NCBI GenBank assembly: GCA_035288465.1
Contig: DATEAH010000007.1
Coordinates: 2,090-66,089 of the forward strand
Length of the DNA: 64,000 nucleotides
Direction of reading: 5' to 3'
DNA from: Patescibacteria group bacterium
GTDB lineage: Bacteria > Patescibacteriota > UBA1384 > DATEAH01
Part shown: piece after piece, positions 2,282 to 60,168 of the stretch
How the letters are laid out: each line of letters opens with the position of its first letter
Position numbering within the stretch: position 1 is the stretch's first letter
Notes under the pieces: generated by a model
Told to the model about the DNA's origin: nothing
The model's input: only the letters and a program-made list of their open reading frames with translations
The model's database searches: none
Made by a program: the position numbers and the translations under genes

Positions 2282-2333
2282 AGCCGTTGCAGGCGAACTC
2301 GACCCACTTGCGACGGCTTTTTTTATTGTCTCG
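2282..2333 (+). terminator. Rho-independent terminator
   Basis: agccgttgca...tgcgacggct stem followed by TTTTTTTATT. Confidence 0.7.
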
Positions 2334-2385
2334 ATGACGATAATCCCGCATTCCAAGCGTTATTAATAGGAAAGTCTGCGGGATA
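2323..2385 (+). repeat. Conserved two-hairpin element, copy 1 (P1 TTATTGTC-TCGA-TGACGATAA; P2 ATCCCGCA-loop-TGCGGGAT)
   Basis: One of four ~80%-identical copies (2323, 2933, 25598, 60099), each directly after a terminator T-run. Confidence 0.75.
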
Positions 2386-2890: not shown

Positions 2891-2933
2891 GCCGAGAGGC
2901 ACCAAGACCCAACTTAGCCTTTCGGCTTTTTTT
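2891..2933 (+). terminator. Rho-independent terminator
   Basis: gccgagaggc / gcctttcggc stem (one G-U pair) followed by TTTTTTT. Confidence 0.7.
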
Positions 2934-2992
2934 ATTGCCTCGACGACGATAATCCCGCATTCCAAGTGTTATGGCAGGAAAGTCTGCGGGAT
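2933..2992 (+). repeat. Conserved two-hairpin element, copy 2
   Basis: TTATTGCCTCGACGACGATAATCCCGCATTCCAAGTGTTATGGCAGGAAAGTCTGCGGGAT. Confidence 0.75.
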
Positions 2993-3001
2993 TGTTAATT
3001 T

Positions 3002-3751
3002 TTAGTACGATTTGATAATATCTCGATAAATTTGATAGGCTTTTTCGCCGCGCCAATTTGAGGGGAGGAATTGTTTGGGGAGTTGGGGATCGTCCCGATA
3101 AATTTGCGCAAACTCCATTTCTAAAAAATTGGCCACTAAGGGCCAAAATTTTCCTCTTTTCGTGCGATGGACGTGCTTGATAAATTGTTGGTATTGAGCG
3201 TTAATTTCGTTGAGTTTCCAGATTTTTTGAATGGTGCTTTTTTCCCGGTCAATTCGATCTGCTTCCGCCAGAGTCATGTATTGCCTGATGCCGAGCTCAT
3301 TGGAAAGGCGGTTGATGGCGCCCAGGAGCGGATGGGGGGAGATATAGACGCCTTTTTGGATTTTTTTGAAGCTCATTTCCGCTAATTTTTTTTGAAGCTC
3401 AAGTCGGTAGGGGCGTTCTTTTTCCGGAAGGCTAAATATCACCATTCGCCATTTGCCGTCCCAGGGATCAAATTTTCGAAATGGTAGTCTGGGCAAAATT
3501 CTGAGCCGACCGCGATTGGTGAGGCTGGGAATTTTATGATGATAACGATGGGTAGTGGTGATTAAGCCCCGTTTTTTAAGAATAGACAATTCTTTCTGAA
3601 GCGTGGCCAAGGAATATGTAGTTTTATAAAAGCGACGAAAAATTTGCTGCAATTGAGAATAAGAGAGCGTGTAATTGATCTCGGGCAGGCAATAGTTAAT
3701 AAAAATCAATAATTTTTCTTGTAAACTGAGATGCTGTTTTATTCTGACCAT
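3002..3751 (-). CDS. PaaX-like winged-helix transcriptional regulator (tentative)
   Basis: 249-aa ORF; N-terminal wHTH-like region; central W-DGKW-MVIFSLPE motif resembling the PaaX family. Confidence 0.4.
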   Translation of the reverse strand: MVRIKQHLSLQEKLLIFINYCLPEINYTLSYSQLQQIFRRFYKTTYSLATLQKELSILKKRGLITTTHRYHHKIPSLTNRGRLRILPRLPFRKFDPWDGKWRMVIFSLPEKERPYRLELQKKLAEMSFKKIQKGVYISPHPLLGAINRLSNELGIRQYMTLAEADRIDREKSTIQKIWKLNEINAQYQQFIKHVHRTKRGKFWPLVANFLEMEFAQIYRDDPQLPKQFLPSNWRGEKAYQIYRDIIKSY

Positions 3752-12074: not shown

Positions 12075-12341
12075 CTATTTATAGGGGACGAGAGGATCTG
12101 GCCGACCGGTACTTTCGGTGGCGGAAACCGGATTGGTATAATTTCGGGTAGCCTCAACCTTTTTAGTTTCAGCCGTATCTTTAATCGTAATTTCTGGTTT
12201 AACGACATCTGGAGTGAAATTATATAATAAATAACCTTGATAACCTAAATAAGCAAACAACGCCATAAAAGCAATCACGATTAAAAATTTTACCGTTTTA
12301 TTGATAATTGAAAAGCTTGTTTTGGTATTTTTTTCAGTCAT
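12075..12341 (-). CDS. Small single-TM protein at the 3' end of the pilus operon (hypothetical)
   Basis: 88-aa ORF with a central TM helix; its start overlaps the upstream stop. Confidence 0.4.
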   Translation of the reverse strand: MTEKNTKTSFSIINKTVKFLIVIAFMALFAYLGYQGYLLYNFTPDVVKPEITIKDTAETKKVEATRNYTNPVSATESTGRPDPLVPYK

Positions 12342-12886
12342 TTGGTGGCCTTTCTTTGGTAAACCGAACCATTAATTTTAGCTTTAGTCTTTTCTGGTGT
12401 GTATTGTAATTCAATGCCGGTCGCATTATTAATTTGGGCTAATTGAGTTAAGCCTGACAAGAACCTTACAAACGAGCCAAAATTTCCCTCTAATTCGATT
12501 TCAAATTTACTTTCATCAACACCACTGACAGTAGAAGTGGTTTTGGTTTTTTGATCAGCGGCGGTCGGAAATTTGATTGAGGTGAGGGTATTTCCTGAAC
12601 TTTGGGCAAGAGCTTCAGCCTGAGTGGTAAAATTTGTCGAGCTATCTTGAGGTAGATAATTTAGCATTTTATCAATTTTTGGCTTTTTAGTTTCAAATTC
12701 TTTAGCGAATTTTTCTAAATCGACTAACTCGTCTTTAGCAATAATTAATTCTTGATTTTTGGTTTTATTTTCTTTGTATTGTTTGGCGAGTTGTCCGGTA
12801 AGCGGTTTGACGACAAAATAAAGGACCGCCACAATAATGAAGCTGAAAAGGATCACGACGGTTAAATTTTTTTGTTCTACAGACAT
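12338..12886 (-). CDS. pilO: Type IV pilus assembly protein PilO-like
   Basis: N-terminal TM plus coiled coil; position after pilN; start chosen at MSVEQKN (GAGGAG RBS) to avoid overlap with pilN. Confidence 0.55.
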   Translation of the reverse strand: MSVEQKNLTVVILFSFIIVAVLYFVVKPLTGQLAKQYKENKTKNQELIIAKDELVDLEKFAKEFETKKPKIDKMLNYLPQDSSTNFTTQAEALAQSSGNTLTSIKFPTAADQKTKTTSTVSGVDESKFEIELEGNFGSFVRFLSGLTQLAQINNATGIELQYTPEKTKAKINGSVYQRKATK

Positions 12887-12890
12887 ATTA

Positions 12891-13478
12891 TTACTCCTCA
12901 GATTTGGTGCCGGTTGATTGAGTGGTAGGTGCAAATTTAGCATTTGCTAATTCCGCGATCATTTGAAAAGTTAAGCCACCGCCATCAGGATTAATTGAAG
13001 CGGAAATAAAAACCGGATTATTAAATTCATTCGAAGTAGCCAGTTTAGTCTTAAAAAGCATCACCGTGCGGTAACTACCAGCAAAACCGGCAATTTCGAT
13101 TTTATTTTGGGATTGTTCGTTAATCTTAAAGGTGGTTAATTGGAGATTGCCCGGAGTTTGATTGGCTAAATTCAAGAGAATTTTTTCCCAATCGACTTGA
13201 TACGCGGAGATTTTTTTAATAATGGTAGAAGTTTCATTATATTTTTGAACTTGAGATAAAATCTGGTCGTATTGTTTACGCTTATTGGCAGCATCATTTA
13301 TTTGATTTGCAAGGCCACGATTGATGATATTGAAATATTGGACTCCAGAAAAGATGACGATTAAGATTAAAACAACTAACAGGGCAATCGGAGTCATATA
13401 CGAAGAATAATAAAGACTTTTTCTTTTTGAAATAATTTTTTCTTTTTCTTGTGGCGGGAGAAGGTTGATTTTTATCAT
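12891..13478 (-). CDS. pilN: Type IV pilus assembly protein PilN
   Basis: MIKINLLPPQEKEK N-terminus typical of PilN; TM helix; follows pilM with overlapping start/stop. Confidence 0.7.
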   Translation of the reverse strand: MIKINLLPPQEKEKIISKRKSLYYSSYMTPIALLVVLILIVIFSGVQYFNIINRGLANQINDAANKRKQYDQILSQVQKYNETSTIIKKISAYQVDWEKILLNLANQTPGNLQLTTFKINEQSQNKIEIAGFAGSYRTVMLFKTKLATSNEFNNPVFISASINPDGGGLTFQMIAELANAKFAPTTQSTGTKSEE

Positions 13479-14527
13479 TAGTATTGATCCCTTAAAGCTA
13501 AGCCAGCCGCTGTAGTTAATCGTAAAATTTGTTCTTGAGGCATTTTTCGCCAGGTTCGTGAGGCGATATTAACAAATGGGTTGGCAATATTGGTTTTTTT
13601 GCCAGTCGTTTCGGTTAAATAAGTGGCAATTTCAGGGGTTAATGCCCCGCCCCCACAAAGTCGAATTTCAGAAATTTTACGGGCCGGCTTGGTGCGCGTT
13701 TCATAAAATTTAATGGCGTTATTGATTTCTTCAATGACATCATTGATAACCGGCGACATTGCCGCAATTAGATTTAACTTAGGGTCTTTTTTGAAACCCG
13801 TTTCTCTTTTAAGTTTTTCAGCTTCAACATCAGTAATTTTTAAGCTATTGGCGAGACTTTTCGTTAAAGTGTTGCCGCCATGAGGTACGGTGTAGGTGAA
13901 TTTGATGCTATCAACATCGTAAATGCTAATGCCAATGGCGGCGGCGCCAATATCAAGGATTAAAAAGGTACCTTGTTCTCCTTTTTTGGCAATGGCGCGA
14001 GCGGCGGCGATTGGTTTGGTCTCAAGGGCGATCAAATCAATGCCAATAGATTTAAAGATTTTAAAATAATTATCGACTAAATATCTTGGGGCAGCCACGA
14101 TTAGGACATTTAGGCTATTTTGGGAGGCTGGTCCTAAGGAAAACCAATCTAAATATAATTCATTTTGGGGGATGGGAATATGTCGAGCCGCTTCGGTGGG
14201 GACGGCAACAGCTAATTCTTCATCAGTCATTTTTGGAATTTGAATTATCTTTGTAAAAACCTTAGATTCTGGCAAACCGGAAACGGCGGTTTTTTCGAAA
14301 ATACGAGGCCTGGCAGTTCGACAAGCGTTTTTAATCGCATCAGCAATTACCCGATCGGCAATGTCTTTTTGCTGGTTGGCTTTGGCGGGAATATTAACAA
14401 TATTAAAGGATTTTAAATAATTTTGATTGCCACGTTTTTTTAAAGCCACAATTTTTACGCTATCGTAACCTAAATCAACACCAAGTAAGTTTTCCTGAAT
14501 TTGTAAAAAACGATCAAATGAAGACAT
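13478..14527 (-). CDS. pilM: Type IV pilus assembly protein PilM (actin-like ATPase fold)
   Basis: LGVDLGYDSVKIVALKK...; FtsA/PilM-like family; operon context. Confidence 0.8.
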   Translation of the reverse strand: MSSFDRFLQIQENLLGVDLGYDSVKIVALKKRGNQNYLKSFNIVNIPAKANQQKDIADRVIADAIKNACRTARPRIFEKTAVSGLPESKVFTKIIQIPKMTDEELAVAVPTEAARHIPIPQNELYLDWFSLGPASQNSLNVLIVAAPRYLVDNYFKIFKSIGIDLIALETKPIAAARAIAKKGEQGTFLILDIGAAAIGISIYDVDSIKFTYTVPHGGNTLTKSLANSLKITDVEAEKLKRETGFKKDPKLNLIAAMSPVINDVIEEINNAIKFYETRTKPARKISEIRLCGGGALTPEIATYLTETTGKKTNIANPFVNIASRTWRKMPQEQILRLTTAAGLALRDQY

Positions 14528-14647
14528 TATTCCTCAATAAATAATCAGCCCCGGATAATTTTTAAATTTTAAGGATAGAGATGCGCCCCTGACCTTTAAT
14601 ACTAATTTTAATTTATCAATAAATGAAATATCTGTCAATTTTTAAAG

Positions 14648-15856
14648 CTAATAAATTTCGTTCCAAGTTTTACTTTTCATAAGCCATTTACCGCCAGGAC
14701 CAGTGGTAAAGATGGAACTTGCTAATCCCATGTCATAATCTAAGGTGGCGCTGCTATTCAAGGTGAGTTTTTTACCAATCAGTGATACCACATGGCCATT
14801 TGAATTAATGGTAATGCCACCATTTAAGGCATAAAATAAGCCACCGACACCATTGGAATTAATCGTGTTGGCAAAAACATCAGTGCTGGTGGAGGCGAAA
14901 AGAATATAGCCTTTAGGATCAGCACTGGTTGGATAAATATTGGTGTTGCTTTCGATTACGACGGTGCCGTCAACAACAATCACCGTGCCTGCCGAGACAA
15001 ATTGTGGATCGAGCCTGAGGGTTGAATTTGACCTCATCACAAAATTCCCGGTCACATATATGGGACCTTTGAGGGTGGTATCTGAATTTTGGCCAAGAGT
15101 TAAATTACCAACAACTTTGCGAGGTCCAAAATCGCCGGTGCCAGTAATAGTATAATCGCCGTTAATTTGATCGTCATTTTCGCTGGCGGCATTTTTCCAA
15201 AAATCAATCGTGATAACAGGCATTTGTTGTGATGGGGCACCCGGGTTGGTGGTGCCGGAAATTTCCGGATTTGGAGTGGTAATAGTGGTGACCGCATAGG
15301 CATCACCATTAATATGTGAATTTGAAGCCCCGGCAATATGGCCATTAGAATAAACATTACCATTAATGATAGAATTGCTGGCCATTTCCAAGCCCCATTC
15401 ACCAATTTGGACCGCATAATGGAAGGCGGCTTCTTCTTCAGAAGCTTCGGTGCTGGCAATGATTTGAATTTGGCGTTGGGCGGGAAAGGGTGAAGAAACT
15501 GGGTAGTAACCGGTCGAAGTAATGAGTCTTTCGTTCGGATCAGAAGCTGAAGGGGCAACCGTGACCGTAAATTTGCCCCCACCCAGAGCAGTATTTTGTT
15601 CGCCGGCATAATTTAAACTTGGTTGGTTGAGGCCCCATAGTGCTTTTTGAATGCCAGATTCAGCTAAAGTAAAAGCCAAATTAGAGTTTTTTAAATTTTT
15701 AGTAATTTTTAAATCATAAGAAACAACGGAGATAAAAAGCGTACCAATTGCCATCATAATCACCATAATAAAGAGGACGGTAGTCAGGGCAAAACCAGAA
15801 TTATTACGAAAATTCTGGCCAAAGATTTTAAAATTTAAAAGTTTGTTTTTTTTCAT
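14648..15856 (-). CDS. PilX-N-domain pilus-associated protein (putative minor pilin / tip protein)
   Basis: N-terminal GFALTTVLFIMVIMMAIGTLFISV...LAESGIQKALWGL resembling the PilX N-terminal domain. Confidence 0.6.
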   Translation of the reverse strand: MKKNKLLNFKIFGQNFRNNSGFALTTVLFIMVIMMAIGTLFISVVSYDLKITKNLKNSNLAFTLAESGIQKALWGLNQPSLNYAGEQNTALGGGKFTVTVAPSASDPNERLITSTGYYPVSSPFPAQRQIQIIASTEASEEEAAFHYAVQIGEWGLEMASNSIINGNVYSNGHIAGASNSHINGDAYAVTTITTPNPEISGTTNPGAPSQQMPVITIDFWKNAASENDDQINGDYTITGTGDFGPRKVVGNLTLGQNSDTTLKGPIYVTGNFVMRSNSTLRLDPQFVSAGTVIVVDGTVVIESNTNIYPTSADPKGYILFASTSTDVFANTINSNGVGGLFYALNGGITINSNGHVVSLIGKKLTLNSSATLDYDMGLASSIFTTGPGGKWLMKSKTWNEIY

Positions 15857-16443
15857 ATTAAATTCCGAGGTTTAATTTCTGTTTGTAAATTAATTGTTTG
15901 CGAGCCTTGAGTTGCGGTTAAATCAATGGTGATAATGGAAGTTCCATAAAGCGTCAAGCCGGTGATGTTACTAGAAATAATAGTATCCTCATCAGAGCTA
16001 AGAACGGCATCGCTGGTGTCATATGAAACCCAGACTTCAGCGGAATCGACATAGTAGTGATAAATCTGACGTTTTAAATCTGTGCCGGAAAGGTAATATT
16101 TAATATATCTTATTTTTTCAAAATTAGAATCTCGAAAACTAATTTCATGTGCAACTAAGGGATTATCTTTGGTGGCAGTTAAAACCGTGGCGATTTCTTC
16201 AGTTTCTCTGAGCTCTCGGGAAATTCTTTCCAAGCCAATGCGGGCGTTTTGGGTTAAATCAGTTTGGGCTGAGCCAGTTTTATAAGATTTTTGGCTAACC
16301 GCATAAACAGTATAGATTGAACCTAAAATCAAGAGTGAAACTGTAATCGCAACTAATAATTCCATTAAGCTAAAACCGGCTTGATTGAATTTTAAATTGC
16401 GACGAGTTTTGGAATTTACGAATTTTTGGGGCAAAAATCTCAT
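15853..16443 (-). CDS. Minor pilin with prepilin-type N-terminal cleavage/methylation domain
   Basis: GFSLMELLVAITVSLLILG class III signal peptide. Confidence 0.7.
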   Translation of the reverse strand: MRFLPQKFVNSKTRRNLKFNQAGFSLMELLVAITVSLLILGSIYTVYAVSQKSYKTGSAQTDLTQNARIGLERISRELRETEEIATVLTATKDNPLVAHEISFRDSNFEKIRYIKYYLSGTDLKRQIYHYYVDSAEVWVSYDTSDAVLSSDEDTIISSNITGLTLYGTSIITIDLTATQGSQTINLQTEIKPRNLI

Positions 16444-16444
16444 T

Positions 16445-16882
16445 TTATTTACCTTTAAGATAAGTGCTGGTCAGACTTTTTTGTTGGCCACCGTCAGTCC
16501 AAAAGACGGTGGCGGTAATTTTTTTCAAGTTCGTTTCTGTTTGAGACTGGACTAAGCCATTATTTACATAGATAACTATGGTTTGAAAATAATAATCATA
16601 AAATGGGCTTGTGGTATCACTTGTAATACGGTTTTTTACCTGACTTGTAACTGAAACATATGCAGTATTTTGGATCTTTTCTATTTCACCTTGGAGTAAA
16701 TTTGAAGCGGTGGTTTCCTTTTCAGAAGTTTTGGTGGCTCTTAAGCCAGCTGGAAAAAGTTGAATAATCGCGGTCGTGGTTATAATAAAAACCAGCAAAG
16801 CCAATAAAACTTCAACCAAGGTGAAGCCATTTTTGGCCGGTTTTGAATTTTTTACTTTAAGATTTTGTCTTGATATTCTCAT
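16445..16882 (-). CDS. Minor pilin (prepilin-type N-terminus)
   Basis: NGFTLVEVLLALLVFIITT; start set at MRISRQ (ATG at 16882) directly after the upstream stop rather than 16939. Confidence 0.7.
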   Translation of the reverse strand: MRISRQNLKVKNSKPAKNGFTLVEVLLALLVFIITTTAIIQLFPAGLRATKTSEKETTASNLLQGEIEKIQNTAYVSVTSQVKNRITSDTTSPFYDYYFQTIVIYVNNGLVQSQTETNLKKITATVFWTDGGQQKSLTSTYLKGK

Positions 16883-16883
16883 A

Positions 16884-17333
16884 TTAATAGGTTTTAATTT
16901 GTCCGACCGGGGTAATTTCAATAGTAATTTTTTCACCAAGATTATTATTTAAGATTATGGTACCATAATTTAAGGGTGCACTCGAAGGTGTAAAAGTAAT
17001 TTGATTATTGGTAAGATTTACTTGGAAAAAGCGAATCCCACGAGATAGGTTGGTGTTGCTGACTTCTGTTTCAGAGCCATCAACTGCTAAGCGATAATTG
17101 GTGTAGCTATCGTTTCCTAAATTAAACCTCACTAAATGCCGAGCTTGAGTGGAAACAGTGGAGCTTTGGGCTTCACGTAGGGCTGCGACCATTTCTCTCG
17201 CCGAACCAGTCAACCGATAATGGGGTGCGACTCGAGTCAGGGCCGCGAAGGAAACAACGCTAAGGATTAAAATGATAGAAATTACGACGAGAACTTCAAC
17301 TATACTGATGCCTTGTCGGAAATATTGATTCAT
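16884..17333 (-). CDS. Pseudopilin / minor pilin (GspH/FimT-like, prepilin-type N-terminus)
   Basis: QGISIVEVLVVISIILILSVVSFAAL. Confidence 0.7.
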   Translation of the reverse strand: MNQYFRQGISIVEVLVVISIILILSVVSFAALTRVAPHYRLTGSAREMVAALREAQSSTVSTQARHLVRFNLGNDSYTNYRLAVDGSETEVSNTNLSRGIRFFQVNLTNNQITFTPSSAPLNYGTIILNNNLGEKITIEITPVGQIKTY

Positions 17334-17341
17334 ATTTTTCT

Positions 17342-18559
17342 CTATTTAATAACTTGAACTAAACTATAAATTGGACCTAAAACAGACATCAAAATAAAGG
17401 CAACGCCCGCACCCATGACAATCATTAAAATTGGTTCGAGTAAAGTCGTTAAGTTTTGGCTCATATAAGCGACATCTTTTTCTAAAAATTTGGCTAAATT
17501 ACGTAAAACATAGTCTAAGTTACCCGATTTTTCACCGACCGTGATCATCTCGCAGATTAAAGGTGGAAAATTTTTATCTTCGAAAAGAGAGGCGCCAACC
17601 GGTGAACCATTTTCAATTTTAATAGCCACCTTTCTAAGCCCATTTTGATAATGAACATTGCCGGTTAATTCGACTAAGGTATCGAAAATTTCCAAAATTG
17701 GCAAACCGGCCGCAGTTAGAGTGGCTAAGGTTCTGACAAAAGTGGCCAAATAAGCCTTTTTTTGTAATTGACCAACTACCGGGGTTTTCATGCTAATCCA
17801 ATCAAACACAGATTTAATTTCAGGGAATTGTTTAGTCCAACGGTATAAGAGATATAAACCCACCACAATCGTAATTATTAGCCACCAATAATTAACAAAT
17901 GCATTACTGACACCAACCAAAATTCTGGTGGTAAGCGGTAAAGTGGCACCGACTTCATTAAACAAGCTCGTTAATTGAGGCACCACAAAAATCATAATAA
18001 TAACGACCACCGCGACCAAGGAAATCAAAATAAAGATTGGATAAATTAAGGCGTTTTTTATTCTTGACATTAAGTCATAATTTTTAGATAAATCACCAGC
18101 CAATCTGGTTAATACCTTATCGAGCTTGCCGGATTTTTCGCCTGATTTGGCAATTTGGCTATAAATTTTAGGAAAAATATCGCTTCTTTTTGAAAGTGAA
18201 TCGGAAAGAGCATTGCCCCCTTTGACTTCTTCGGAAATTTCCGCAATTTGCTCGGAGAAATATTTATTATTAGTTTGATTTTTGAGGGTGTCTAAGGCGG
18301 CGACTAAGGGAAAGCCGGATTTAAGCATGACCGCTAATTGTTGAGTGAAAATTACTTTATCGCGGAGAGCGACTTTTTTCGAAAAATAATTTAAAATATT
18401 AAAAGAGCTGGTGGCTAAGTCTTTACTGGAATCGGAAAGAGAGGTCACAAAGAGACTTTGTTTTCTTAAAATTTCCGCCGCCGCCAGGCTATTTGCCGCT
18501 TCAACCTCACCGGCTTTTTCAACGCCATCTTCAGTCTTGGCGCGATATATAAATTTCAT
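17342..18559 (-). CDS. pilC: Type IV pilus platform protein PilC (GspF family)
   Basis: Two GspF repeats and 3 TM helices; follows pilB. Confidence 0.9.
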   Translation of the reverse strand: MKFIYRAKTEDGVEKAGEVEAANSLAAAEILRKQSLFVTSLSDSSKDLATSSFNILNYFSKKVALRDKVIFTQQLAVMLKSGFPLVAALDTLKNQTNNKYFSEQIAEISEEVKGGNALSDSLSKRSDIFPKIYSQIAKSGEKSGKLDKVLTRLAGDLSKNYDLMSRIKNALIYPIFILISLVAVVVIIMIFVVPQLTSLFNEVGATLPLTTRILVGVSNAFVNYWWLIITIVVGLYLLYRWTKQFPEIKSVFDWISMKTPVVGQLQKKAYLATFVRTLATLTAAGLPILEIFDTLVELTGNVHYQNGLRKVAIKIENGSPVGASLFEDKNFPPLICEMITVGEKSGNLDYVLRNLAKFLEKDVAYMSQNLTTLLEPILMIVMGAGVAFILMSVLGPIYSLVQVIK

Positions 18560-18590
18560 ATCAACCCTCTATAATTAATGAATTTTCAAT

Positions 18591-21023
18591 TTATTCTCGA
18601 GTCACTCTCCAAACTTCTTCAACAGTGGTAATACCATCAAGCGCTTTTAAAATCCCATCTTGTTTCATGGTGATCATACCTTCGGAAATCGCTTTGGTGG
18701 CTAATTCTTGGGAGGAAACTTTTTTCAAGATTAAATTTCTCATCGGTTCAGTTAAAGCAAAGACTTCAAAAATTCCAACCCGTCCTTTATAGCCGATATT
18801 ATTGCACGCTGTGCAACCTTTGCCTTTATAAAAGACCATCTCGCGATTATCAAGCTCCTTTTTTTCTTTCTCGGGGAGCTTGGCTAATTCTTGTTTAATT
18901 TCAGTAAGAATTTCATCGGCAATAGGTTCTTTTTGTTTGCAATGTTCGCAGACTTTACGAGTTAATCGTTGAGCCACAACAGTATTAACCGAAGAAGTGA
19001 CTAAAAATGGTTCAACGCCCATATCAATCATACGAGGCACCGCTCCAGCGGCGTCATTAGTATGAAGAGTTGAGAGCACCACGTGGCCAGTTAAAGCCGC
19101 ATGGACAGCCATTTCGGCGGTTTCGAGATCGCGAATTTCACCAACCATAATAATATCCGGATCTTGTCTGACAATTGAACGTAAGCCTTTCGCAAAAGTA
19201 AAACCGATGTCAGTCCGCACCTGACCTTGGTTAATACCCTTAATCTGATATTCAACCGGGTCTTCAAGGGTAATAATATTAACACCTTCTTTGTTTAATT
19301 TGCCTAAGACGGCATATAAAGTAGTGCTTTTACCAGAACCGGTCGGTCCAGTCACTAAAATCATCCCATGTGATTTACTAATGGCATCGTTTAAACGGGA
19401 GAAAGCTTCGCCACGAAAACCCAATTCCTCTAAAGTTAACACGCCACCCGATTTATCTAAAATACGCATGACCGCCTTTTCGCCATAAACAGTGGGAAAA
19501 ACACTTAACCTAAAATCAATTTTACGTTTATTAACCGTGAGTCCAAAACGACCGTCTTGCGGAAGTCGAGTTTCGTCAATTTTTAAATTTCCTAAGATTT
19601 TAATACGAGAAATAACGGCTGGTTGTATCGATTTTGGCAAGGAAACTACCTCTTGAAGCACGCCATCAATTCTAAATCTAACGATGACTTCTTTTTCATA
19701 AGGTTCAATATGAATATCTGAAGCTTCGGATAAGACGGCGCGTTTGAGAATTGATTGGACGGCTCGTGAAGTTGGTGCTTCAGCTTTGGCAATATCTTCT
19801 TCTTGGTCTTCTTTTGTTTTAGTTTCTTTCTCTGGAGTCGCTTTTTTAATTTCTTGAGCTATTTCAGATTCAAATTCTGAATATTGTTCCAAAACATGAC
19901 CAATATCTTCTTGGGTCGCTAAGGCTGGTTTGATTTCTGCACCGGTTTTTTTCTTGATAAATTCGATGGCTTGATAATCTTCGGGATCAACCATAGCGAC
20001 GATTAATTTGCCATTTTTTTCTTCAACCGGAATCGCTTGATAAAGCCTGGCGATATATTCTGGAATTTTGGCTAAAATTTCTTTGGGAATTTTATGGCTT
20101 CGAAGATCAACATAGCTAATATCATTTTTTGGTTTTGCAGTTTCGGATAAAGTCGCGGTAATTTCCTTGCGGGCGTTTTTAAAAACATTGGCTTGATTAG
20201 GGTTTTGAGCTGCAAGATTGTTGGGGTTAGGAGCGGTTTTTGCAGCTGGATTTGTTGGAACTGGAGTTAAAGTTGTGGGCTCTTTTTTGGGACCAGCAAT
20301 TGGAGCGGTTTTTACAGGTTCTATTGGTTTTTCAGATTTTGTTGGGGTTGGTTTTTCTGAAGCATCAAGGGTGGGAGAAGAGGTCCTGGAAGCTGATTTT
20401 TTGCCAAATAAAAAACCGAAAAAGGATTTTTTAGTGGACGGAGTTGGCGAAGGAGCAACTGGTTTAGACTCAGGTTTAGGCGAAGGGGTAGGAATAGTAG
20501 TGCTTGGACTATCAGGGGTAGGTTTTATTTTTGTACCATAATTAATTTGTGAACCAGATTTGAGAAATGATGAAGAAGGTTGATTTTGTGGGGTAGTTTT
20601 TGCTGCCAGAGAAGCGGGCGCAGAGGTAGTGTGGCTAGAAATTTTTTCAATAGGTTCAGTTTTGGCGGGTCTTTGGATTGGAATAATTTGTTCACCAGAA
20701 ATAGGTGCCAACTCTGGTTCAGTTTTAGCAGCTTGCGTTTTGGGTTCAGTATAATCTTTGCCAATCGATTTTTTGAGCGTATAGCTGGTATTAAATGAAG
20801 GTTTCTTTTTATTTGCCGTAGGCTGGGGGTTTTGTTGGGGATCGATGTTTTTATTAGAGATCGCACTCGGCGAGAAAGCCCCCAAATTAGAAATTAAAAC
20901 TTTATTGCCTTGTGCTAATTGCGAGGTCACGACATTAATAAAAGTTCTTACGAATAATTCCGTTTTTTTCACAGGTAAATTTGAATTTGTCGCTAATAAT
21001 CTCACAAATTCTTTTCTGAGCAT
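18591..21023 (-). CDS. pilB: Type IV pilus extension ATPase PilB/GspE carrying a truncated HU-like N-terminal module and a ~270-aa Pro/Thr/Ser-rich linker
   Basis: C-terminus has GSPII_E_N, Walker A GPTGSGKSTTL and the CxxC...CxxC zinc motif. Residues 1-55 (LPVKKTELFVRTFINVVTSQLAQGNKVLISNLGAFS) align with the HU gene in this window (AKASNLNRGEVLKLLNEFSHTLAQTLAKGEKVSLSGFGTFS). Strong RBS AAAGGAGGG upstream of ATG 21023. Confidence 0.85.
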   Translation of the reverse strand: MLRKEFVRLLATNSNLPVKKTELFVRTFINVVTSQLAQGNKVLISNLGAFSPSAISNKNIDPQQNPQPTANKKKPSFNTSYTLKKSIGKDYTEPKTQAAKTEPELAPISGEQIIPIQRPAKTEPIEKISSHTTSAPASLAAKTTPQNQPSSSFLKSGSQINYGTKIKPTPDSPSTTIPTPSPKPESKPVAPSPTPSTKKSFFGFLFGKKSASRTSSPTLDASEKPTPTKSEKPIEPVKTAPIAGPKKEPTTLTPVPTNPAAKTAPNPNNLAAQNPNQANVFKNARKEITATLSETAKPKNDISYVDLRSHKIPKEILAKIPEYIARLYQAIPVEEKNGKLIVAMVDPEDYQAIEFIKKKTGAEIKPALATQEDIGHVLEQYSEFESEIAQEIKKATPEKETKTKEDQEEDIAKAEAPTSRAVQSILKRAVLSEASDIHIEPYEKEVIVRFRIDGVLQEVVSLPKSIQPAVISRIKILGNLKIDETRLPQDGRFGLTVNKRKIDFRLSVFPTVYGEKAVMRILDKSGGVLTLEELGFRGEAFSRLNDAISKSHGMILVTGPTGSGKSTTLYAVLGKLNKEGVNIITLEDPVEYQIKGINQGQVRTDIGFTFAKGLRSIVRQDPDIIMVGEIRDLETAEMAVHAALTGHVVLSTLHTNDAAGAVPRMIDMGVEPFLVTSSVNTVVAQRLTRKVCEHCKQKEPIADEILTEIKQELAKLPEKEKKELDNREMVFYKGKGCTACNNIGYKGRVGIFEVFALTEPMRNLILKKVSSQELATKAISEGMITMKQDGILKALDGITTVEEVWRVTRE

Positions 21024-25070: not shown

Positions 25071-25099
25071 TTGACAAAATTAAACCCATGGCATATAAT
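25071..25099 (+). promoter_or_regulatory. Sigma70-like promoter (TTGACA-17-TATAAT, with a second TATAAT 3 nt downstream)
   Basis: tcTTGACAaaattaaacccatggcaTATAATggTATAAT in a 790-bp gene-free region. Confidence 0.5.
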
Positions 25100-25500
25100 G
25101 GTATAATCTTCAGAAATGAAGATGAAGATTAACAACTAATCTCTACCGAAAATTTTCTGAAATTGCATCGGGTGGAAGAAGACAAGGAGGGCTTTTTAAT
25201 ACCTTAATTCTTCTGCTATACAACACTACAAAATTGCACCTAAAAAAATAAAAATAAAAAATGAGTAGTTGGTACACTTAAGCTGGATAAAAATTATCTT
25301 GCTCAAGCGTACCAACTACCCAAAATAGGGTAGAGATTGGTACAACAGAGGATCGGCACTCGCACCTTCTAAACAAAGGCTTGCAGAGACTGAGTTTTCT
25401 CTGAAGGGCCAATAGGTTTTTCGGGGATCATTAGAAGACTGCAGCCTTCCAAGGCGCGGAACGCGCCAAACATTTTAAAAATAGTGGGCGTTTAGTTCCG

Positions 25501-25597
25501 CGCCTATTCTAACACAAAGCTTGAAGAAAATCAAGTCTAAGCGCAGCCCGTCTCACCTTATCGGTGAGCCGAGGTAAAAAGAATAGGCGCTTTTTTT
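25501..25597 (+). terminator. Long-stem terminator-like structure ending in a T-run
   Basis: gcgcctattct (25501-25511) pairs with agaataggcgc (25581-25591), followed by TTTTTTT; internal ctcacc-ttatc-ggtgag hairpin. Confidence 0.45.
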
Positions 25598-25656
25598 GTT
25601 GCCTCGATAGCAACAATCCCGCACTCCTATCGTTAAGAAAGGAAAATCTGCGGGAT
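25598..25656 (+). repeat. Conserved two-hairpin element, copy 3 (P1 with compensatory TTGTTGC/GCAACAA)
   Basis: GTTGCCTCGATAGCAACAATCCCGCACTCCTATCGTTAAGAAAGGAAAATCTGCGGGAT. Confidence 0.75.
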
Positions 25657-42462: not shown

Positions 42463-43071
42463 TTGATTTTTAGCGATGAGATTATGATTGATTTTATTGA
42501 AAAATACAAACTTTACATTGTCGGTTTTTTGGTCTTGGTAATTTTAGTCGGAGTGGTGATTTTGCTTTGGCAAAAGAAAAATAGTCCGAAATCATCGATT
42601 ACAAAAAATAGTAGCGAAATTAGAGTTGATATTGAGGGCGCCATTAAAAAGCCCGGCGTTTATGTTTTAAAATCCGAAGCGATTTTAGAGGATTTAGTCG
42701 CTCAAGCTGGCGGCGTGACCGAAAATATTGATAAAATCAGGTTTGCTCAGGAATTTAATCGAGCCGAAGTGTTAAGTGATGGCCAAAAAATTTATTTGCC
42801 ATTTGCCGGAGAAGTGGCAGGTGCGGCGACAAATAATACTAGCGGTAGTGCGACTGAATCTAACACGATCCAAACTGCGGGAAAAATTAACTTAAATTCA
42901 GCTACTGCCGAGCAATTAGATACTTTATCTGGAATTGGACCAGCTTATGCGGCCAGAATTATTGAATATCGGCAGGCGCATGGTGGCTTTAAGATTATTG
43001 AAGAAATAATGGAAATTAAAGGGATTGGCCAAAAAACTTTTGATAAAATCAAAGACCAGATTACGATATAG
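42463..43071 (+). CDS. comEA: ComEA competence DNA receptor (SLBB + helix-hairpin-helix)
   Basis: N-terminal TM; INLNSATAEQLDTLSGIGPAYAARIIEYR..GIGQKTFDKIK HhH motifs. Confidence 0.85.
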   Translation: MIFSDEIMIDFIEKYKLYIVGFLVLVILVGVVILLWQKKNSPKSSITKNSSEIRVDIEGAIKKPGVYVLKSEAILEDLVAQAGGVTENIDKIRFAQEFNRAEVLSDGQKIYLPFAGEVAGAATNNTSGSATESNTIQTAGKINLNSATAEQLDTLSGIGPAYAARIIEYRQAHGGFKIIEEIMEIKGIGQKTFDKIKDQITI

Positions 43072-44245: not shown

Positions 44246-44322
44246 GCCGCCATCGTCTAGAGGCCTAGGATACCAGGTTTTCATCCTGGAGATCACCGGT
44301 TCGAATCCGGTTGGCGGTGCCA
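44246..44322 (+). tRNA. tRNA-Glu (anticodon TTC), CCA encoded
   Basis: GCCGCCA..TCGTCTAGAGGCCTAGGATACC..TTTTCAT..GGTTCGAATCC..TGGCGGT G CCA; D-arm near-identical to E. coli tRNA-Glu. Confidence 0.9.
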
Positions 44323-44478
44323 AGATAAAACTGTAATCTCCTTGATTACAATTTTATCTTATTGCCACACTGGGTGAGAACCTGTTGGCGAAAAAATTAA
44401 ACAAAAATCAAAGTGAAATATTATACTTTCCGTTCAGTCGTTAGTTGAGTTGTTTTGCGTTGAGACGGGCTTTAGCCC

Positions 44479-44501
44479 TTCGAATCCGGTTGGCGGTGCC
44501 A
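44479..44501 (+). repeat. 23-bp direct repeat of the tRNA-Glu 3' end (att-like scar)
   Basis: TTCGAATCCGGTTGGCGGTGCCA identical to 44300-44322, 156 bp downstream of the intact tRNA. Confidence 0.8.
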
Positions 44502-44685
44502 AAATAGAATTCCAATTCATAATTTATAACTCAGAATTACATTACAGAATCCACAATTCGTAATTTGTCCCGTTAGCTGGCGGGCTTTTTTAATTTGAAA
44601 GCCGTTTACTTTGTTTGCCGCATATGATATATATAGTATAATCTCCGGAATGGTCCGGTCTGGTCATCTGCTAAGGAGGCGCGAG

Positions 44686-46410: not shown

Positions 46411-47220
46411 ATGCCACAATTTAAATTGAAAAATAGACAAACTCAAGTAATTTTGATGATAATCGTCATTGTCGGGGCGGTTTATTTTTTAGTGGCAAAT
46501 CGACCTAAAAATGCGGTTTCGCCGGTGCAACAAGAAAATGACGGTTTAACTAATTTGTTGTCGCCGCGAGAAGAAAAAAAATTAGATAGTAAAAATCAGA
46601 CCAAAACTACTAATACCCAATCTAATACTCAAACTGCGATTAAAGATTCGGTTTTATTGTCAGTGCCTTTTACTTCCCAAGCACCTTTGGTGGTTTGGGA
46701 TGATTTGCATAATGAAGCTTGCGAAGAGGCGTCGGTAATCATGGTGGCTGAATATTTATCAGGTAATCATAATCGTAAATTAGAAGTGAATTTTGCTGAC
46801 CAACAAATTATCAAGATGGTTAATTGGGAAATTAATAAATTGGGTTCACATAAAGATTTAACCGCCGAAGAAACCGTCAGATATTTAGCAATTGGTAATT
46901 TGGGTTATAAAAATGCTCATGTTCATCGTGATTTTTCGATTGATAATATTAAAAGGGAATTATCAGCTGGCAAACCCGTGGTTATCCCGATGGCGGGCAG
47001 GCTTCTCGGAAATCCGAATTTTCGGCAGCCTGGTCCGGTCTATCATATGTTGGTGATTAAGGGTTATAATTCAAAATATTTTATTACCAATGACCCCGGG
47101 ACGCGTAAGGGCGAAAGTTATAAATATTTGTTCTCCACAATTGAAAAAGCCGCCCATAATTGGGCGGGTACTCCTGATAAAATCGAGTCTGGCGCGAAAG
47201 TCTATTTGACTCTAAATTAG
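46411..47220 (+). CDS. Peptidase_C39-like (C39_2) domain protein, membrane-anchored
   Basis: N-terminal TM; QAPLVVWDDLHNEACEEASVIMVAEY with candidate catalytic Cys. Confidence 0.5.
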   Translation: MPQFKLKNRQTQVILMIIVIVGAVYFLVANRPKNAVSPVQQENDGLTNLLSPREEKKLDSKNQTKTTNTQSNTQTAIKDSVLLSVPFTSQAPLVVWDDLHNEACEEASVIMVAEYLSGNHNRKLEVNFADQQIIKMVNWEINKLGSHKDLTAEETVRYLAIGNLGYKNAHVHRDFSIDNIKRELSAGKPVVIPMAGRLLGNPNFRQPGPVYHMLVIKGYNSKYFITNDPGTRKGESYKYLFSTIEKAAHNWAGTPDKIESGAKVYLTLN

Positions 47221-47229
47221 ATTATATCT

Positions 47230-47900
47230 TGAGGTGGGAGATTTATTTTGGAAAGATGGGGCTACGAGGCAGGAAGGAAGAGTTGGTTGGTGTTTCCCCA
47301 GTTTGGGGGAACTAAGTTGGCACCAGCCTGTCTTTCTTCTTCCTGCCTCGCAGTTTTCTATGTGAACCCAACATTAGGTCCTGAGTTTGAGAAATTCTCA
47401 GAACCGGTTGGGGTTGAAGACTGACCAGCAGCGTCCGGGTTTTCTATCCCCGAGTCTTGGCGTCTCAGGCCTCGCTATTCGACGCTGCCGGTCAGATTCT
47501 GAGAGGGTTAGCGGCTGGGATAACCGTGGGGTAGTGTGATTGGACTGCAGACGGGGAACCACCTGAGGCTGTCCCATTTCCAACCCTCTCAAGCTGAAGG
47601 GGGAAAGGTGCGCCAAGATTTCCAGACCAGGATTGCAACCGCTATTTGGGTTCCTTATTCCCCACGAAACTGGCGAAGGCATTTGGTTCTACGCCAGGTC
47701 TTGCACACCATCCGGAGAACTTCATGCCTTCATGACTGTTGGAGAGAGGAGAGTGATACCCAACTGAAGCTGCGAAAGTGATAACCCTTTCCTCTCTTTT
47801 TGGTTCCGTAGTGACGCTCCTTCCTCGCCGTGAGTCTTGAAGCGTCTAAGCTCTTACAGTTCTCCGAACTGTCGCAGCTTAAGAGCTAAGCTATAATATT
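47230..47900 (+). ncRNA. GC-rich (~55%) highly structured noncoding locus of unknown identity; strand not established
   Basis: No credible ORF (track ORFs here are antiparallel overlaps). Long-range stem 47262-47284 / 47335-47355, nested ccccag-ttt-ggggg and ggttggtg/caccagcc helices, several GNRA-type loops, and a 3' hairpin agctcttacagttc...gaactg..taagagct. Confidence 0.4.
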
Positions 47901-47945
47901 GTACCAAATCCTAAAAATTTGTCAAGTCAATATCAAAAAATTGGT

Positions 47946-47975
47946 TTGACAAAAGTGGTTCTTTCTTGTTATAAT
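47946..47975 (+). promoter_or_regulatory. Sigma70-like promoter upstream of rny (TTGACA-18-TATAAT)
   Basis: ttTGACAaaagtggttctttcttgtTATAATtt. Confidence 0.5.
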
Positions 47976-48059
47976 TTAAGCAGATTATAGTAATTTTTTA
48001 TTTAAATTTTGATCCCATAAAAATGGGGAATTGAATTGCGAACATGAGAGGAAAATACA

Positions 48060-49583
48060 ATGAACAATTTGATCTTAGGGTTATTGATCGGCCTGCCGAT
48101 TGCTACTGGCGTGGCCGGATATTTTTTAAGAAAACTAACGGTCCAGAAAATTTTCAAGACTCAAGAAAACAAAGCTTCTAAAATTATTAACGACGCAAAA
48201 AATCAAGAAAAAGAAATTTTGTTAAGCGCCAAAGACGAGGCTCTCAAAATTAAAGAAGAGGCAAAAAAAGAAGCTGACACGAAGCAGAAATACATTTTTG
48301 ATTTGGAAAGAGCTTTACGTTCCAAAGAAGATTTATTGGAAAGAAAATCCCAAAACTTAGAGGATGATAAGGCTAAATTATCAGAAAAAATTTTAGAAGT
48401 GGAAAAATTTAAAGAAGTTTTAAAAAAAGCCAAGGCTGAGCAAATGACCACTTTGGAAAAGATTGCGAAAGTTTCTCAAGATGAAGCAAAAAAAATTTTG
48501 TTAGACTTGGTGGAAAAAGAGTATAAAGATGAATTGGTAGAAAAAATCAAAGAAATGGAGCTTTTCACCAAAGACCAAGCCGAAGACAAAGCCAGGGAAA
48601 TTATTATTACCGCGATTCAAAGATTAGCCTCGGAACAAACCGCAGAAACAACCGTAGCGGCAGTATCAATTCCTTCTGACGAAATGAAAGGCCGCATTAT
48701 TGGTCGCGAAGGCCGCAATGTCCAGACTTTTGAAAAATTAGCCGGCGTCGACGTCATCATCGATGACACTCCGGAAGTAGTGGTGATATCATGTTTTGAT
48801 CCGGTGAGACGGCAAATTGCTCGCATGGCTTTGGAAAAATTAATTGCCGATGGCCGAATTCACCCGACTCGTATTGAAGAAATGATTGAAAAAGCCAAAG
48901 TGGAAATTTCTCAGCAAATCAAAGAAGCCGGTGAGCAAGCAGTTTATGATGTTGGCGTGGCTGGTTTGCATCCGGATTTAGTTAAAATTTTAGGCAGATT
49001 AAAATTCCGCACCTCATACGGCCAAAATGTGTTGATGCATTCGATGGAAACCGCAAATTTAGCGGCCATGATTGCTTCTGAACTTGGTGCAGATGTGAAT
49101 ATGGCAAAAAAAGCGGGCTTATTGCATGATATTGGTAAAGCCGTTGACCACCAAATTGAAGGTTCGCATGCGGTAATTGGGGCTGATATATTGAAAAAAT
49201 ATGGTATCAATCCTGATATTGAAAAAGCAGTTCGAGGCCATCACGAAGACATTGAGCCAACTTTAATGGCAATTATTATTCAAGCCGCAGATGCGATTTC
49301 CGGTTCCAGGCCAGGGGCGCGTAAGGAATCTTTGGACTCTTATATTAAAAGATTGGGTGATTTGGAAAATGTCGCCAATGATTTTGAGGGAGTTGATAAA
49401 TCTTATGCAATTCAGGCTGGTCGTGAGATTCGTGTGATTGTGAAACCTGAAGATATTGATGATTTAGCCTCGGCCAAATTGGCGAAAAATATCGCTCGAA
49501 AAATTGAAAAAGAATTAAAATATCCAGGCCAAATTAAAGTAAATGTGATTAGAGAAACGAGAGCGGTTGATTTTGCAAAATAA
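48060..49583 (+). CDS. rny: Ribonuclease Y
   Basis: N-terminal TM, coiled coil, KH domain ([10 protein letters not shown]) and HD domain ([14 protein letters not shown]). Confidence 0.9.
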
Positions 49584-59453: not shown

Positions 59454-59534
59454 AAGGACATTCCAGCCTTGATTGTTTTGATTCTGCTCACCTCAGGCTT
59501 TGTGCCTGATAATCTCTGTTTAGGGGGGAACGTT

Positions 59535-59747
59535 ATGTCGTTGAAGTTCTGGGCCATCGTGGCTGCGATCATCTCCTTCGGGCTATATGCCTGCGGGAAG
59601 GTCGAAGCCGGAAATGACGTGGCGTCCACCGGTTGGTGGATAGCCTCGACCATCGGTATGGCGATCGCGTTTTTCCTGGCGATTGCCTGCATGTGGCAGC
59701 CGTTCGAGGACATCCCTGACACCGCCGACGACTTTGAGTCGTACTGA
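59535..59747 (+). CDS. Small hydrophobic 2-TM protein (70 aa) in a ~60% GC segment
   Basis: MSLKFWAIVAAIISFGLYACGK...; codon usage and GC unlike the host. Confidence 0.4.
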   Translation: MSLKFWAIVAAIISFGLYACGKVEAGNDVASTGWWIASTIGMAIAFFLAIACMWQPFEDIPDTADDFESY

Positions 59748-59818
59748 CGATTAGGTTTCGCCCCCAGTTTCACCCCGGTTGCGTTTCAGCACCACAAACC
59801 CCAGGAGGAGTCGATCAG

Positions 59819-59992
59819 ATGGGCAAGAAGCAAACGTCTAAAGGACTCTGTTCCGCGATTGTCGGCTCTGCACCGTGCCAGCGAGCTTTCAAGAGCCACA
59901 CCTGCCCGGCACACCCGAGCCGCAAGAATGACAAGACCTGCCTGGGGATCGCGAAGTTCGCGAAGGGTAGCGGACACCGCAAAAAGCGGTGA
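59819..59992 (+). CDS. Small basic Cys-rich peptide (57 aa), GC-rich
   Basis: RBS AGGAGG 10 nt upstream; MGKKQTSKGLCSAIVGSAPCQRAFKSHTCPAHPSRKNDKTCLGIAKFAKGSGHRKKR; the overlapping alternative-frame ORF 59859-60119 runs through the terminator and is considered spurious. Confidence 0.3.
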   Translation: MGKKQTSKGLCSAIVGSAPCQRAFKSHTCPAHPSRKNDKTCLGIAKFAKGSGHRKKR

Positions 59993-60019
59993 CTACCGCG
60001 CCACACCAACCCGACAGCA

Positions 60020-60098
60020 TTCGTTGTTTACCGGCGAGCAAGAGTGGAAAGGGCTTCACCCCTTTCGCAACCCCCACTCCTTGCCCGCCGGTTTCTTT
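60020..60098 (+). terminator. Long GC-rich stem followed by a T-run
   Basis: ccggcgagcaagagtgg...ccactccttgcccgccgg then TTTCTTTTT. Confidence 0.5.
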
Positions 60099-60159
60099 TT
60101 ATCGCCTCGATGGCGATAATCCCGCACTCCTAGCGTTATAATCGGAAAATCTGCGGGAT
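60099..60159 (+). repeat. Conserved two-hairpin element, copy 4 (P1 TTATCGCC-TCGA-TGGCGATAA, perfect)
   Basis: TATCGCCTCGATGGCGATAATCCCGCACTCCTAGCGTTATAATCGGAAAATCTGCGGGATA; lies between the GC-rich cassette and the uvrB stop codon. Confidence 0.75.
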
Positions 60160-60168
60160 AAAGAGAAC

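Follow-up and report, generated by a model that had tools for sequence, protein, structure and literature searches.

REP sequences and BIMEs are short, hairpin-forming extragenic repeats that are species-specific and are found at transcription-unit 3' ends and where two genes converge; their stems are kept by compensatory changes, and they have neither terminal inverted repeats nor target duplications. They consist of one 20–40-nt palindrome or an inverted REP pair, carry a conserved 5' GTAG/GTGG tetranucleotide, lie inside the transcript, and are mobilised in Proteobacteria by RAYT, a Y1 transposase whose gene often has REPs on its flanks. Derivatives of IS200/IS605 elements (PATEs) have hairpins at both ends, the left and right hairpins resembling each other, and likewise lack terminal inverted repeats and target duplications; they have conserved cleavage tetranucleotides and insert with strict polarity on the 3' side of a short T-rich target, and their last hairpin is followed by a tail of ~9–10 nt. 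MITEs, among them the Correia elements of Neisseria, RUP and BOX of Streptococcus and RPE of Rickettsia, are small, non-coding, multi-copy, lineage-restricted structured insertions, for which filled and empty sites are found between related genomes. In 2007, Robart et al. reportedly found class C group II introns inserted right after the stem-loop and T-stretch of intrinsic terminators, in the terminator's polarity.

CPR genomes are tiny and compact and are regarded as poor in mobile DNA. To our knowledge, small interspersed repeats have not been described from Patescibacteria/CPR, and a full-text literature search for such repeats in these organisms found nothing relevant. The repeats analysed here are from a Patescibacteria group bacterium (assembly GCA_035288465.1, contig DATEAH010000007.1), and the whole 64,000-nucleotide stretch of DNA that was analysed is referred to as the window. 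A sequence-only reading had reported a family of four two-hairpin elements in it. This four-copy family is real and previously undescribed.

Copies, anatomy and placement of the repeat

The window contains exactly four copies of the element, all on the + strand and ~60–68 nt each (Table 1). Their positions and strand, as first reported, were borne out both by pattern matching and by a covariance model. A 41-nt core pattern matched copies 2–4 with 0 mismatches and gave 0 matches in 100 shuffles; copy 1 departs from it by one additional loop base only. The covariance model derived from these four sequences (65 positions, 19 pairs) scored them at 87–93 bits when the window was scanned with filters off. 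The runners-up were the antisense of the same four copies at ~13–15 bits, followed by noise at ≤12 bits. Within the window, the exact 8-mer ATCCCGCA is confined to the elements (8 occurrences, both arms counted), and no other substantial dispersed repeat family is present. The GC content of the window is ~38% and its GC skew is positive throughout; all four copies are on the G-rich strand (leading-strand sequence).

Table 1. Positions of the element copies, of the terminators that precede them and of the adjacent regulator gene (window coordinates)
Feature	Position	Strand	Details
Copy 1 terminator	2283–2324	+	35-nt hairpin 2283–2317, T7 2318–2324, −17.7 kcal/mol; ends M48/CHAP peptidase gene (542–2266)
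Copy 1 element	2323–2384	+	Helix 1 2324–2330/2336–2342, loop TCGAT; helix 2 2343–2350/2377–2384, 26-nt interior; 90.5 bits
Copy 2 terminator	2891–2933	+	36-nt hairpin, T7 2927–2933, −17.9 kcal/mol; ends DUF5640/lipocalin-like lipoprotein gene (2489–2860)
Copy 2 element	2934–3001	+	Core to 2992, helix 2 arms 2952–2959/2985–2992, then 9-nt tail; 87.1 bits
PaaX-like wHTH regulator gene	3002–3751	−	PaaX_M 1.5e-22, PaaX_C 1.9e-9; TIGR02277 67 bits, below cut-off
Copy 3 terminator	25541–25597	+	50-nt branched hairpin, T7 25591–25597, −17.8 kcal/mol
Copy 3 element	25598–25656	+	Helix 1 TTGTTGC/GCAACAA; helix 2 arms 25616–25623/25649–25656; 88.6 bits
Copy 4 terminator	60031–60100	+	61-nt long hairpin, TTTCTTTTT 60092–60100, −31.9 kcal/mol; ends GC-rich small-ORF unit (59469–59992)
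Copy 4 element	60101–60168	+	Core to 60159; helix 1 TTATCGCC/GGCGATAA; helix 2 arms 60119–60126/60152–60159; 9-nt tail; 92.9 bits

Both hairpins of each copy fold as had been described. Conservation along the element is block-wise: invariant stretches adjoin a saturated loop block, and the changes seen in helix 1 are compensatory. All 8 bp of helix 2 are invariant, as is most of its interior (YTCC, GTTA, GGAAA-R-TC), and two loop blocks are saturated with changes; the inner TTCC/GGAA pairing that had been proposed for this loop is reduced to TCC/GGA in copies 3 and 4. Terminal inverted repeats were found in none of the four copies; T-run/ATYGYC at the 5' end has no inverted counterpart at the 3' end, which consists of CTGCGGGAT and a variable tail. 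There was no consistent flanking direct repeat indicative of a target-site duplication, only copy 3 having TTTGTTGC on both sides, and the 9-nt tails after the element core are unconserved. In copies 2 and 4, the T-run is separated by exactly 68 nt from the stop codon that ends the convergent gene, the PaaX-like gene in the case of copy 2 (stop codon 3002–3004) and uvrB in that of copy 4 (60169–60171). Equal spans are as expected of a fixed-length unit inserted at a contiguous T-run/stop-codon junction, and this contiguous state is present in three related loci (L027, L108 and L106).

Several simple identities for the element were rejected. Conserved −35/−10 hexamers are absent from it, which disposes of an internal promoter; a mini-ORF (M-x-IIPHS) is found in copies 1 and 4 only, without an RBS; and resemblances to a K-turn, a tRNA-like T-arm, group II domain V and RNase P P4 each came down to a short shared string. 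As DNA uptake sequences, the elements are far too sparse and the unit is too long, even though ComEA and type IV pilus genes are present.

Each copy starts at the end of a T7–T9 run closing a strong hairpin and shares the polarity of that terminator (4/4), and the reported placement directly after a terminator thus holds for every copy (Table 1). It is the hairpin preceding each copy, not the element, that has the makeup of an intrinsic terminator; after the element's own hairpins, no consistent T-run was found on either strand in the four copies. An element accompanies only ~4 of the roughly 11 compact intergenic terminators on the + strand, and 0 of the few on the minus strand; it is thus no generic terminator part. 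The terminator of copy 3 closes an ORF-less, highly structured unit of ~490 nt with a consensus promoter at 25071–25099.

Copies 1 and 2 had been noted to flank a single lipoprotein gene, and they are indeed direct repeats around one promoter-gene-terminator unit. Their homology reaches into the terminator hairpins, which have in common a GCCG...CGGC base and a GACCCA(A)CTT loop (GACCCACTT in copy 1) and show compensating differences in mid-stem. The pair arose when the terminator and the element were duplicated as one around the lipoprotein gene. Such an arrangement could also be left by an attC- or att-like recombination site capturing small gene cassettes. The lipoprotein gene would then represent integration at a pre-existing copy, a single crossover would produce the homology that extends into the terminator hairpin, and the single polarity of all copies would be accounted for. 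Integron attC sites and CALINs do resemble the element in being ~60-nt structured sites at the 3' end of small gene units, in one orientation, with recognition that would be partly structural. The likeness proposed in the sequence-only reading does not extend further than this. Whereas attC sites have R'' (RYYYAAC) and R' (GTTRRRY) core sites, the ends of the element have neither, and the one GTTA that it contains is central in the loop of helix 2, with TTA, TGG, AGA or TAA after it. The single long attC hairpin with extrahelical bases contrasts with the two independent hairpins of the element. Moreover, the copies are dispersed over 58 kb and form no array, copies 3 and 4 are without a partner copy, neither an IntI integrase nor another recombinase is encoded in ~84 kb, and one "cassette", that at copy 4, predates the element (see below). 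We consider a recombination site of this type very unlikely.

Folding, covariation and possible recognition

Folding of both hairpins gave z values of −2.5 to −4.5, similar on the + and − strands. In helix 1, 3/7 pairs vary (one AU→GC, one CG→UA and one UG/CG/UA series); 2 pairs are changed on both sides, and one pair occurs as three pair types. The G-U wobbles reported for copies 1 and 2 are present as a G.T wobble in both, but copy 2 additionally has a C.A mismatch. Copies 2 and 3 have one such non-standard pair each. When covariation measures were compared with shuffles of the four sequences, the observed values were reached in 49–65 of 500 shuffles and are not significant, and covariation support for structure is for this reason suggestive, for helix 1 only. 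From the original claim of covariation, the two compensatory pairs of helix 1 can be kept, whereas the values do not stand out against shuffles (n = 4) and helix 2, its 8 bp being invariant, is uninformative about structure. That helix 2 does not vary points to recognition by sequence and not to an RNA helix.

If the element were a structured RNA, it would be made on the + strand by terminator read-through and could serve as a back-up terminator or insulator, as a block to 3'-exonucleases, or as a 3' UTR processing or protein-binding module. The two stable hairpins that are predicted, the double changes and the U.G/C-G/U-A series through which helix 1 keeps its pairing, and a polarity that is always that of the upstream transcription unit are in keeping with such a role. 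The element lies beyond a strong hairpin and U7, however, and most transcripts should for this reason end before it; nor does a consistent U-run follow it. The G.T wobble of copy 1, tolerated on the + strand only, is in favour of an RNA; against it, the minus strand folds about equally well and the mismatches of copies 2 and 3 become wobbles there. Orthologous terminators in relatives work without the element, and the absence both of Rfam similarity and of conservation in any relative examined would be unusual for a functional RNA. The non-significant covariation and the invariant helix 2 likewise speak against an RNA. An RNA role is therefore improbable in our estimation, and the structural-RNA and integron-like readings first put forward are at best weakly supported.

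Host cis-regulatory DNA is another candidate identity, as an operator or roadblock for the PaaX-like winged-helix regulator encoded next to copy 2 (249-aa product), which would bind as a dimer to half-sites ~three helical turns apart. Such a site would serve as an insulator after terminators, or in the control of promoters that lie a short way downstream of copies 1 and 3. In E. coli, the sequence of the PaaX site is TGATTC(N27)GAATCA, with half-site centres 33 bp apart (PMC9493321). The inverted arms of the element, ATCCCGCA-N25/26-TGCGGGAT, have a centre-to-centre distance of 33 bp in copies 2–4 and 34 bp in copy 1, and they are 100% invariant while loop positions are saturated, as expected for protein recognition. 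The half-site sequence itself is a different one, the match in geometry could be coincidence, and the protein scores 67 bits against a PaaX equivalog cut-off of 265 bits. With regard to position, the end of the PaaX-like gene is 9 nt from copy 2, and promoter-like sequences are found 3–38 nt downstream of copies 1–3. The copies do not lie over promoters, however; the spacing to the putative −10 is variable (27–38 nt), there is nothing to regulate downstream of copies 2 and 4, each of which has convergent genes on its two sides, and there is no element at the regulator's own promoter. A PaaX operator would also leave helix 1 and its compensation, the internal GTTA and GGAAA blocks, the 4-nt asymmetry of the arms and the adjacency to the T-run unexplained. 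We judge this reading unlikely.

Database searches and orthologous junctions in relatives

The elements had not been recognised as a described motif family, and in a scan against Rfam 15 no match was obtained on them at the gathering threshold; with E up to 5, only unrelated sub-threshold matches in flanking hairpins were seen at the four loci. A strict pattern (CCCGCAYTCC-N10-20-GGAAARTCTGCGGG) gave 0 matches in 185,579 GTDB species genomes and JGI metagenome contigs, and IMG/VR contained no family match. A loose stem-only pattern (AATCCCGCA-N24-28-TCTGCGGGAT) gave 74 GTDB and 2 viral loci; since all were scattered single matches in unrelated taxa, scoring ≤28 bits by the model, they were rejected as homologues and taken for chance matches or ordinary palindromic terminators. 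With the covariance model, nothing was found in ~130 kb of related CPR loci (L027–L029, L106–L110), nor was there a further copy in ~18 kb of additional flank sequence. Two loci related by their PaaX-like protein were found, neither of which has the element; an ATCCCGC stem after the PaaX-like gene of L106 was rejected as a trace of it and judged an ordinary shared terminator.

Searches of Pfam, NCBIfam and PHROGs revealed no transposase, integrase, RAYT or TnpA/TnpB gene in the ~84 kb examined, in agreement with the statement made earlier that the window holds no recombinase. The same databases gave no assignment for the neighbouring hypothetical proteins, and the proteins of the region have no paralogues inside it. 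Over all three element regions compared, >20 metagenome contigs of the same genome showed 0–1 differences (one SNP); these contigs being clonal, no within-species presence/absence polymorphism of the element was seen among them.

The closest other UvrB is 71% identical to that of the window, and relatives with ~70% UvrB identity retain the synteny trmD-uvrB ... L25. As in the window, uvrB of L027, L028 and L108/L111 is met by a convergent GC-rich gene that encodes a small membrane protein with two TM segments and ends in a long hairpin and T-run. Copy 4 had been thought to close a foreign GC-rich micro-cassette, for which no DNA match was found among plasmids or phages. Because gene, hairpin and T-run are conserved beside uvrB in three relatives without the element, the unit is older than the element and not foreign, and the element did not arrive with a cassette at this site, contrary to what capture by recombination would imply.

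At the uvrB 3' junction itself, the T-run overlaps the uvrB stop codon in L027 and L108/L111, giving an empty site, whereas in the window 68 nt (element plus 9 nt) are found between the two. No target-site duplication is apparent when filled and empty uvrB junctions are compared. On the tree, a gain in the window lineage and a loss in the ancestor of L027/L028/L108 are equally parsimonious. Insertion is favoured over loss for the window element at this site because the element is multi-copy and the empty junctions are precise.

The same junction in L028 holds an unrelated AT-rich palindromic repeat of ~75 nt. A second copy of this repeat (~85% identical over ~70 nt) is located directly after the T7 of the KhpA-trmD terminator, and each of the two copies comes directly after a T7 run, oriented like the terminator. 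In the window, L027 and L108/L111, the KhpA-trmD junction is 10–30 nt long and without an element; the L028 repeat is absent from both sites in L027 (92% UvrB identity), L108 (89%) and the window. Judged by these junctions, recent gain is demonstrated for the L028 repeats, since both sites are empty in sisters with 87–92% UvrB identity (the range among L027, L028 and L108). The two L028 copies are in opposite chromosomal orientations; their polarity is that of the terminator, not that of the replication fork. Ter/KOPS/Chi-type oriented chromosomal sites were rejected as an identity for the element, the unit being too long and the L028 family tracking terminator rather than replication polarity.

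Likeness to insertion elements and a possible mode of mobilisation

With moderate confidence, we regard the element as a lineage-specific, non-autonomous structured insertion element (REP/PATE/MITE-like) occupying a post-terminator niche. The features of REP sequences and BIMEs set out at the beginning, from the extragenic hairpins at transcription-unit ends and between convergent genes to the compensated stems, recur in the element, which is likewise extragenic, multi-copy and species-specific (four intergenic copies in 64 kb; absent elsewhere searched). Unlike them, it has two unlike hairpins in ~60–68 nt, no GTAG/GTGG before either hairpin in any copy, and a position beyond the T-run of the terminator, not within the transcript; its host is a CPR bacterium, its density is low (4 per 64 kb), and no RAYT gene is found in ~84 kb. 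An ordinary REP sequence was the outcome against which the sequence-only reading had set its own proposal. The evidence favours something close to it, a species-specific extragenic palindromic insertion element, in which the REP tetranucleotide is not present.

The IS200/IS605 derivatives are matched in that hairpin 1 is at the 5' end, hairpin 2 is 9 nt from the inferred 3' end, a T-run always lies directly before the element, and all four copies are on the lagging-strand template. The left and right hairpins of the element are unrelated, however, its ends show no conserved cleavage tetranucleotides, neither TnpA nor TnpB is encoded in the sequence examined, and both chromosomal orientations are represented in the analogous L028 family. 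With MITEs, the element shares its small size, lack of coding capacity, copy number, restriction to a lineage and structured nature. The site of copy 4 is empty in L027, L108 and L111, with gain and loss equally parsimonious there. The element lacks the terminal inverted repeats and target-site duplication, and no related full-length IS was found. Class C group II introns are alike in insertion site and in polarity relative to the terminator, but at ~60 nt the element has no ribozyme domains, reverse transcriptase or GUGYG...AY ends.

The element is a discrete unit of ~60–68 nt, copied to at least four loci just 3' of intrinsic-terminator T-runs. Under the insertion reading, it would be mobilised in trans, the enzyme having its gene elsewhere in the genome. 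Our best guess for this enzyme is an HUH/Y1-type transposase or nuclease (IS200/IS605 or RAYT-like) that is structure-specific and acts on single-strand DNA, because of the lack of terminal inverted repeats and target duplication, the hairpins at both ends, the strict polarity after a T-run and the lagging-strand template. The mobilising or binding protein probably reads hairpin 1, in which stem pairing is kept by compensatory changes and the loop CTCGAY is invariant, and probably also GTTA, GGAAA and the arms AATCCCGCA...TCTGCGGGAT, which do not vary. Placement after terminators is probably part targeting and part survivorship, the latter being proposed because a compact genome offers almost no other harmless place for ~70 nt. 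Once inserted, the element would probably be near-neutral, or mildly useful as added insulation between convergent or tandem transcription units.

Several observations speak against insertion: the missing terminal inverted repeats and target duplication, the unconserved tails, the lack of a mobilising gene in ~84 kb and of within-species polymorphism, the equal parsimony of gain and loss at copy 4, and the small number of copies (n = 4). Against an HUH/Y1 enzyme in particular stand the dissimilar hairpins, the lack of a conserved cleavage motif and the opposite chromosomal orientations of the L028 copies. The block-wise conservation, together with the compensation in helix 1, is equally in keeping with a host function for which each copy has long been under selection. 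We consider it distinctly unlikely that the element is no selfish DNA at all but a host-maintained, structure- and sequence-specific DNA module placed after selected terminators, either as a platform bound by the PaaX-like regulator (a protein roadblock or insulator) or as an integrase-independent capture site with the lipoprotein gene as one captured unit. Should the PaaX-like or the recombination reading be true, the family would represent a new kind of terminator-linked DNA module.

The finding has practical consequences. A few compensatory pairs are insufficient to read such repeats as new regulatory RNAs, and the repeats are a hazard for assembly and annotation; the covariance model and the diagnostic junctions can now be used for tracking the element. 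The family is most likely of an ordinary kind, a palindromic insertion element of the small interspersed type, though its host is an unusual one. Different and unrelated structured repeats are present in two related CPR lineages, wedged in each exactly between the T-run of a terminator and the gene that comes next; the two repeats share this niche and agree in their polarity with respect to the terminator. This suggests that such genomes have a recurrent landing site in the post-terminator position, and a trans-acting mobilisation activity operating there.

A putative structured transcription unit before the third element copy

An ORF-less unit of ~490 nt lies behind a promoter of perfect consensus (TTGACA-17-TATAAT, 25071–25099, plus strand) and ends immediately before element copy 3. 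Its predicted fold (−167 kcal/mol, z = −8.1) is far more stable than those of shuffled sequences, and a 29-bp hairpin within it (25262–25322) is followed on the minus strand by T6. A search of the unit against Rfam gave no match. The unit is a candidate for a novel large structured ncRNA. The 840-nt intergenic region between the C39-like peptidase and RNase Y genes (47220–48060) likewise matched no Rfam family; it has raised GC (0.46), hairpin-plus-T-run sites and divergent consensus promoters (47925–47898, minus; 47946–47975, plus).

Features of the window and of related CPR loci
Feature	Sequence	Coordinates	Strand	Remark
ORF-less unit	window	25071–25597	+	~490 nt, structured, behind promoter
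Type IV pilus gene block	window	12338–21023		pilins, PilC-like, PilB-like
ComEA-like gene	window	42463–43071
GC-rich two-TM gene unit	window	59469–60100
GC-rich two-TM gene unit	L027	11990–12345
GC-rich two-TM gene unit	L028	5990–6360
GC-rich two-TM gene unit	L108	8377–8800
L028 repeat copy	L028	1868–1960	+	GCA_004196255.1, SDBU01006028.1
L028 repeat copy	L028	5850–5975	−	GCA_004196255.1, SDBU01006028.1

Terminators, repeats and the gene beside uvrB

Across the three 20-kb stretches of the window scanned, canonical short-loop intrinsic terminators were about as frequent as expected by chance in two and somewhat more frequent than that in the third, 44–64 kb; the convincing terminators of this genome have long stems and loops of 10–16 nt. 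In the relatives, one hairpin is common to both genes of a convergent pair, with its T-run overlapping the opposing stop codon. The related uvrB locus L028 carries a second terminator-adjacent repeat family, unrelated to the element of the window: an AT-rich imperfect palindrome of ~75 nt (TACKAATTACAAAT...GTACAAAT...ATTCGTAATTAGT), directly preceded by a hairpin and T7 in both copies. The positions orthologous to its two copies are unoccupied in the window, in L027 and in L108/L111. A 67-kb metagenome contig, L004 (ENA ERZ27254762 k141_1294449), ends 11 nt past element copy 2 (locus end 12464), a possible assembly break at the repeat.

Convergent with uvrB, and conserved in the window, L027, L028 and L108, is a gene for a small two-TM membrane protein, which is possibly toxin-like. 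Its GC content is ~50–58%, compared with 38% for the genome, and its 3′ end forms an unusually long hairpin (60–90 nt). The window holds an additional 57-aa Cys-rich ORF (59819–59992) with a good RBS.

Possible integration remnant and putative competence genes

The tRNA gene at 44246–44319 has a second copy of its 3′ end 179 nt downstream (44300–44337 versus 44479–44516, 87% identity over 38 nt), and this duplication looks like the att-site remnant of an element that integrated or excised. The PilB-like protein of the pilus block has an HU-like domain at its N-terminus. The type IV pilus block and ComEA-like gene suggest natural competence; these genes bear on the route by which foreign or mobile DNA enters this CPR genome.
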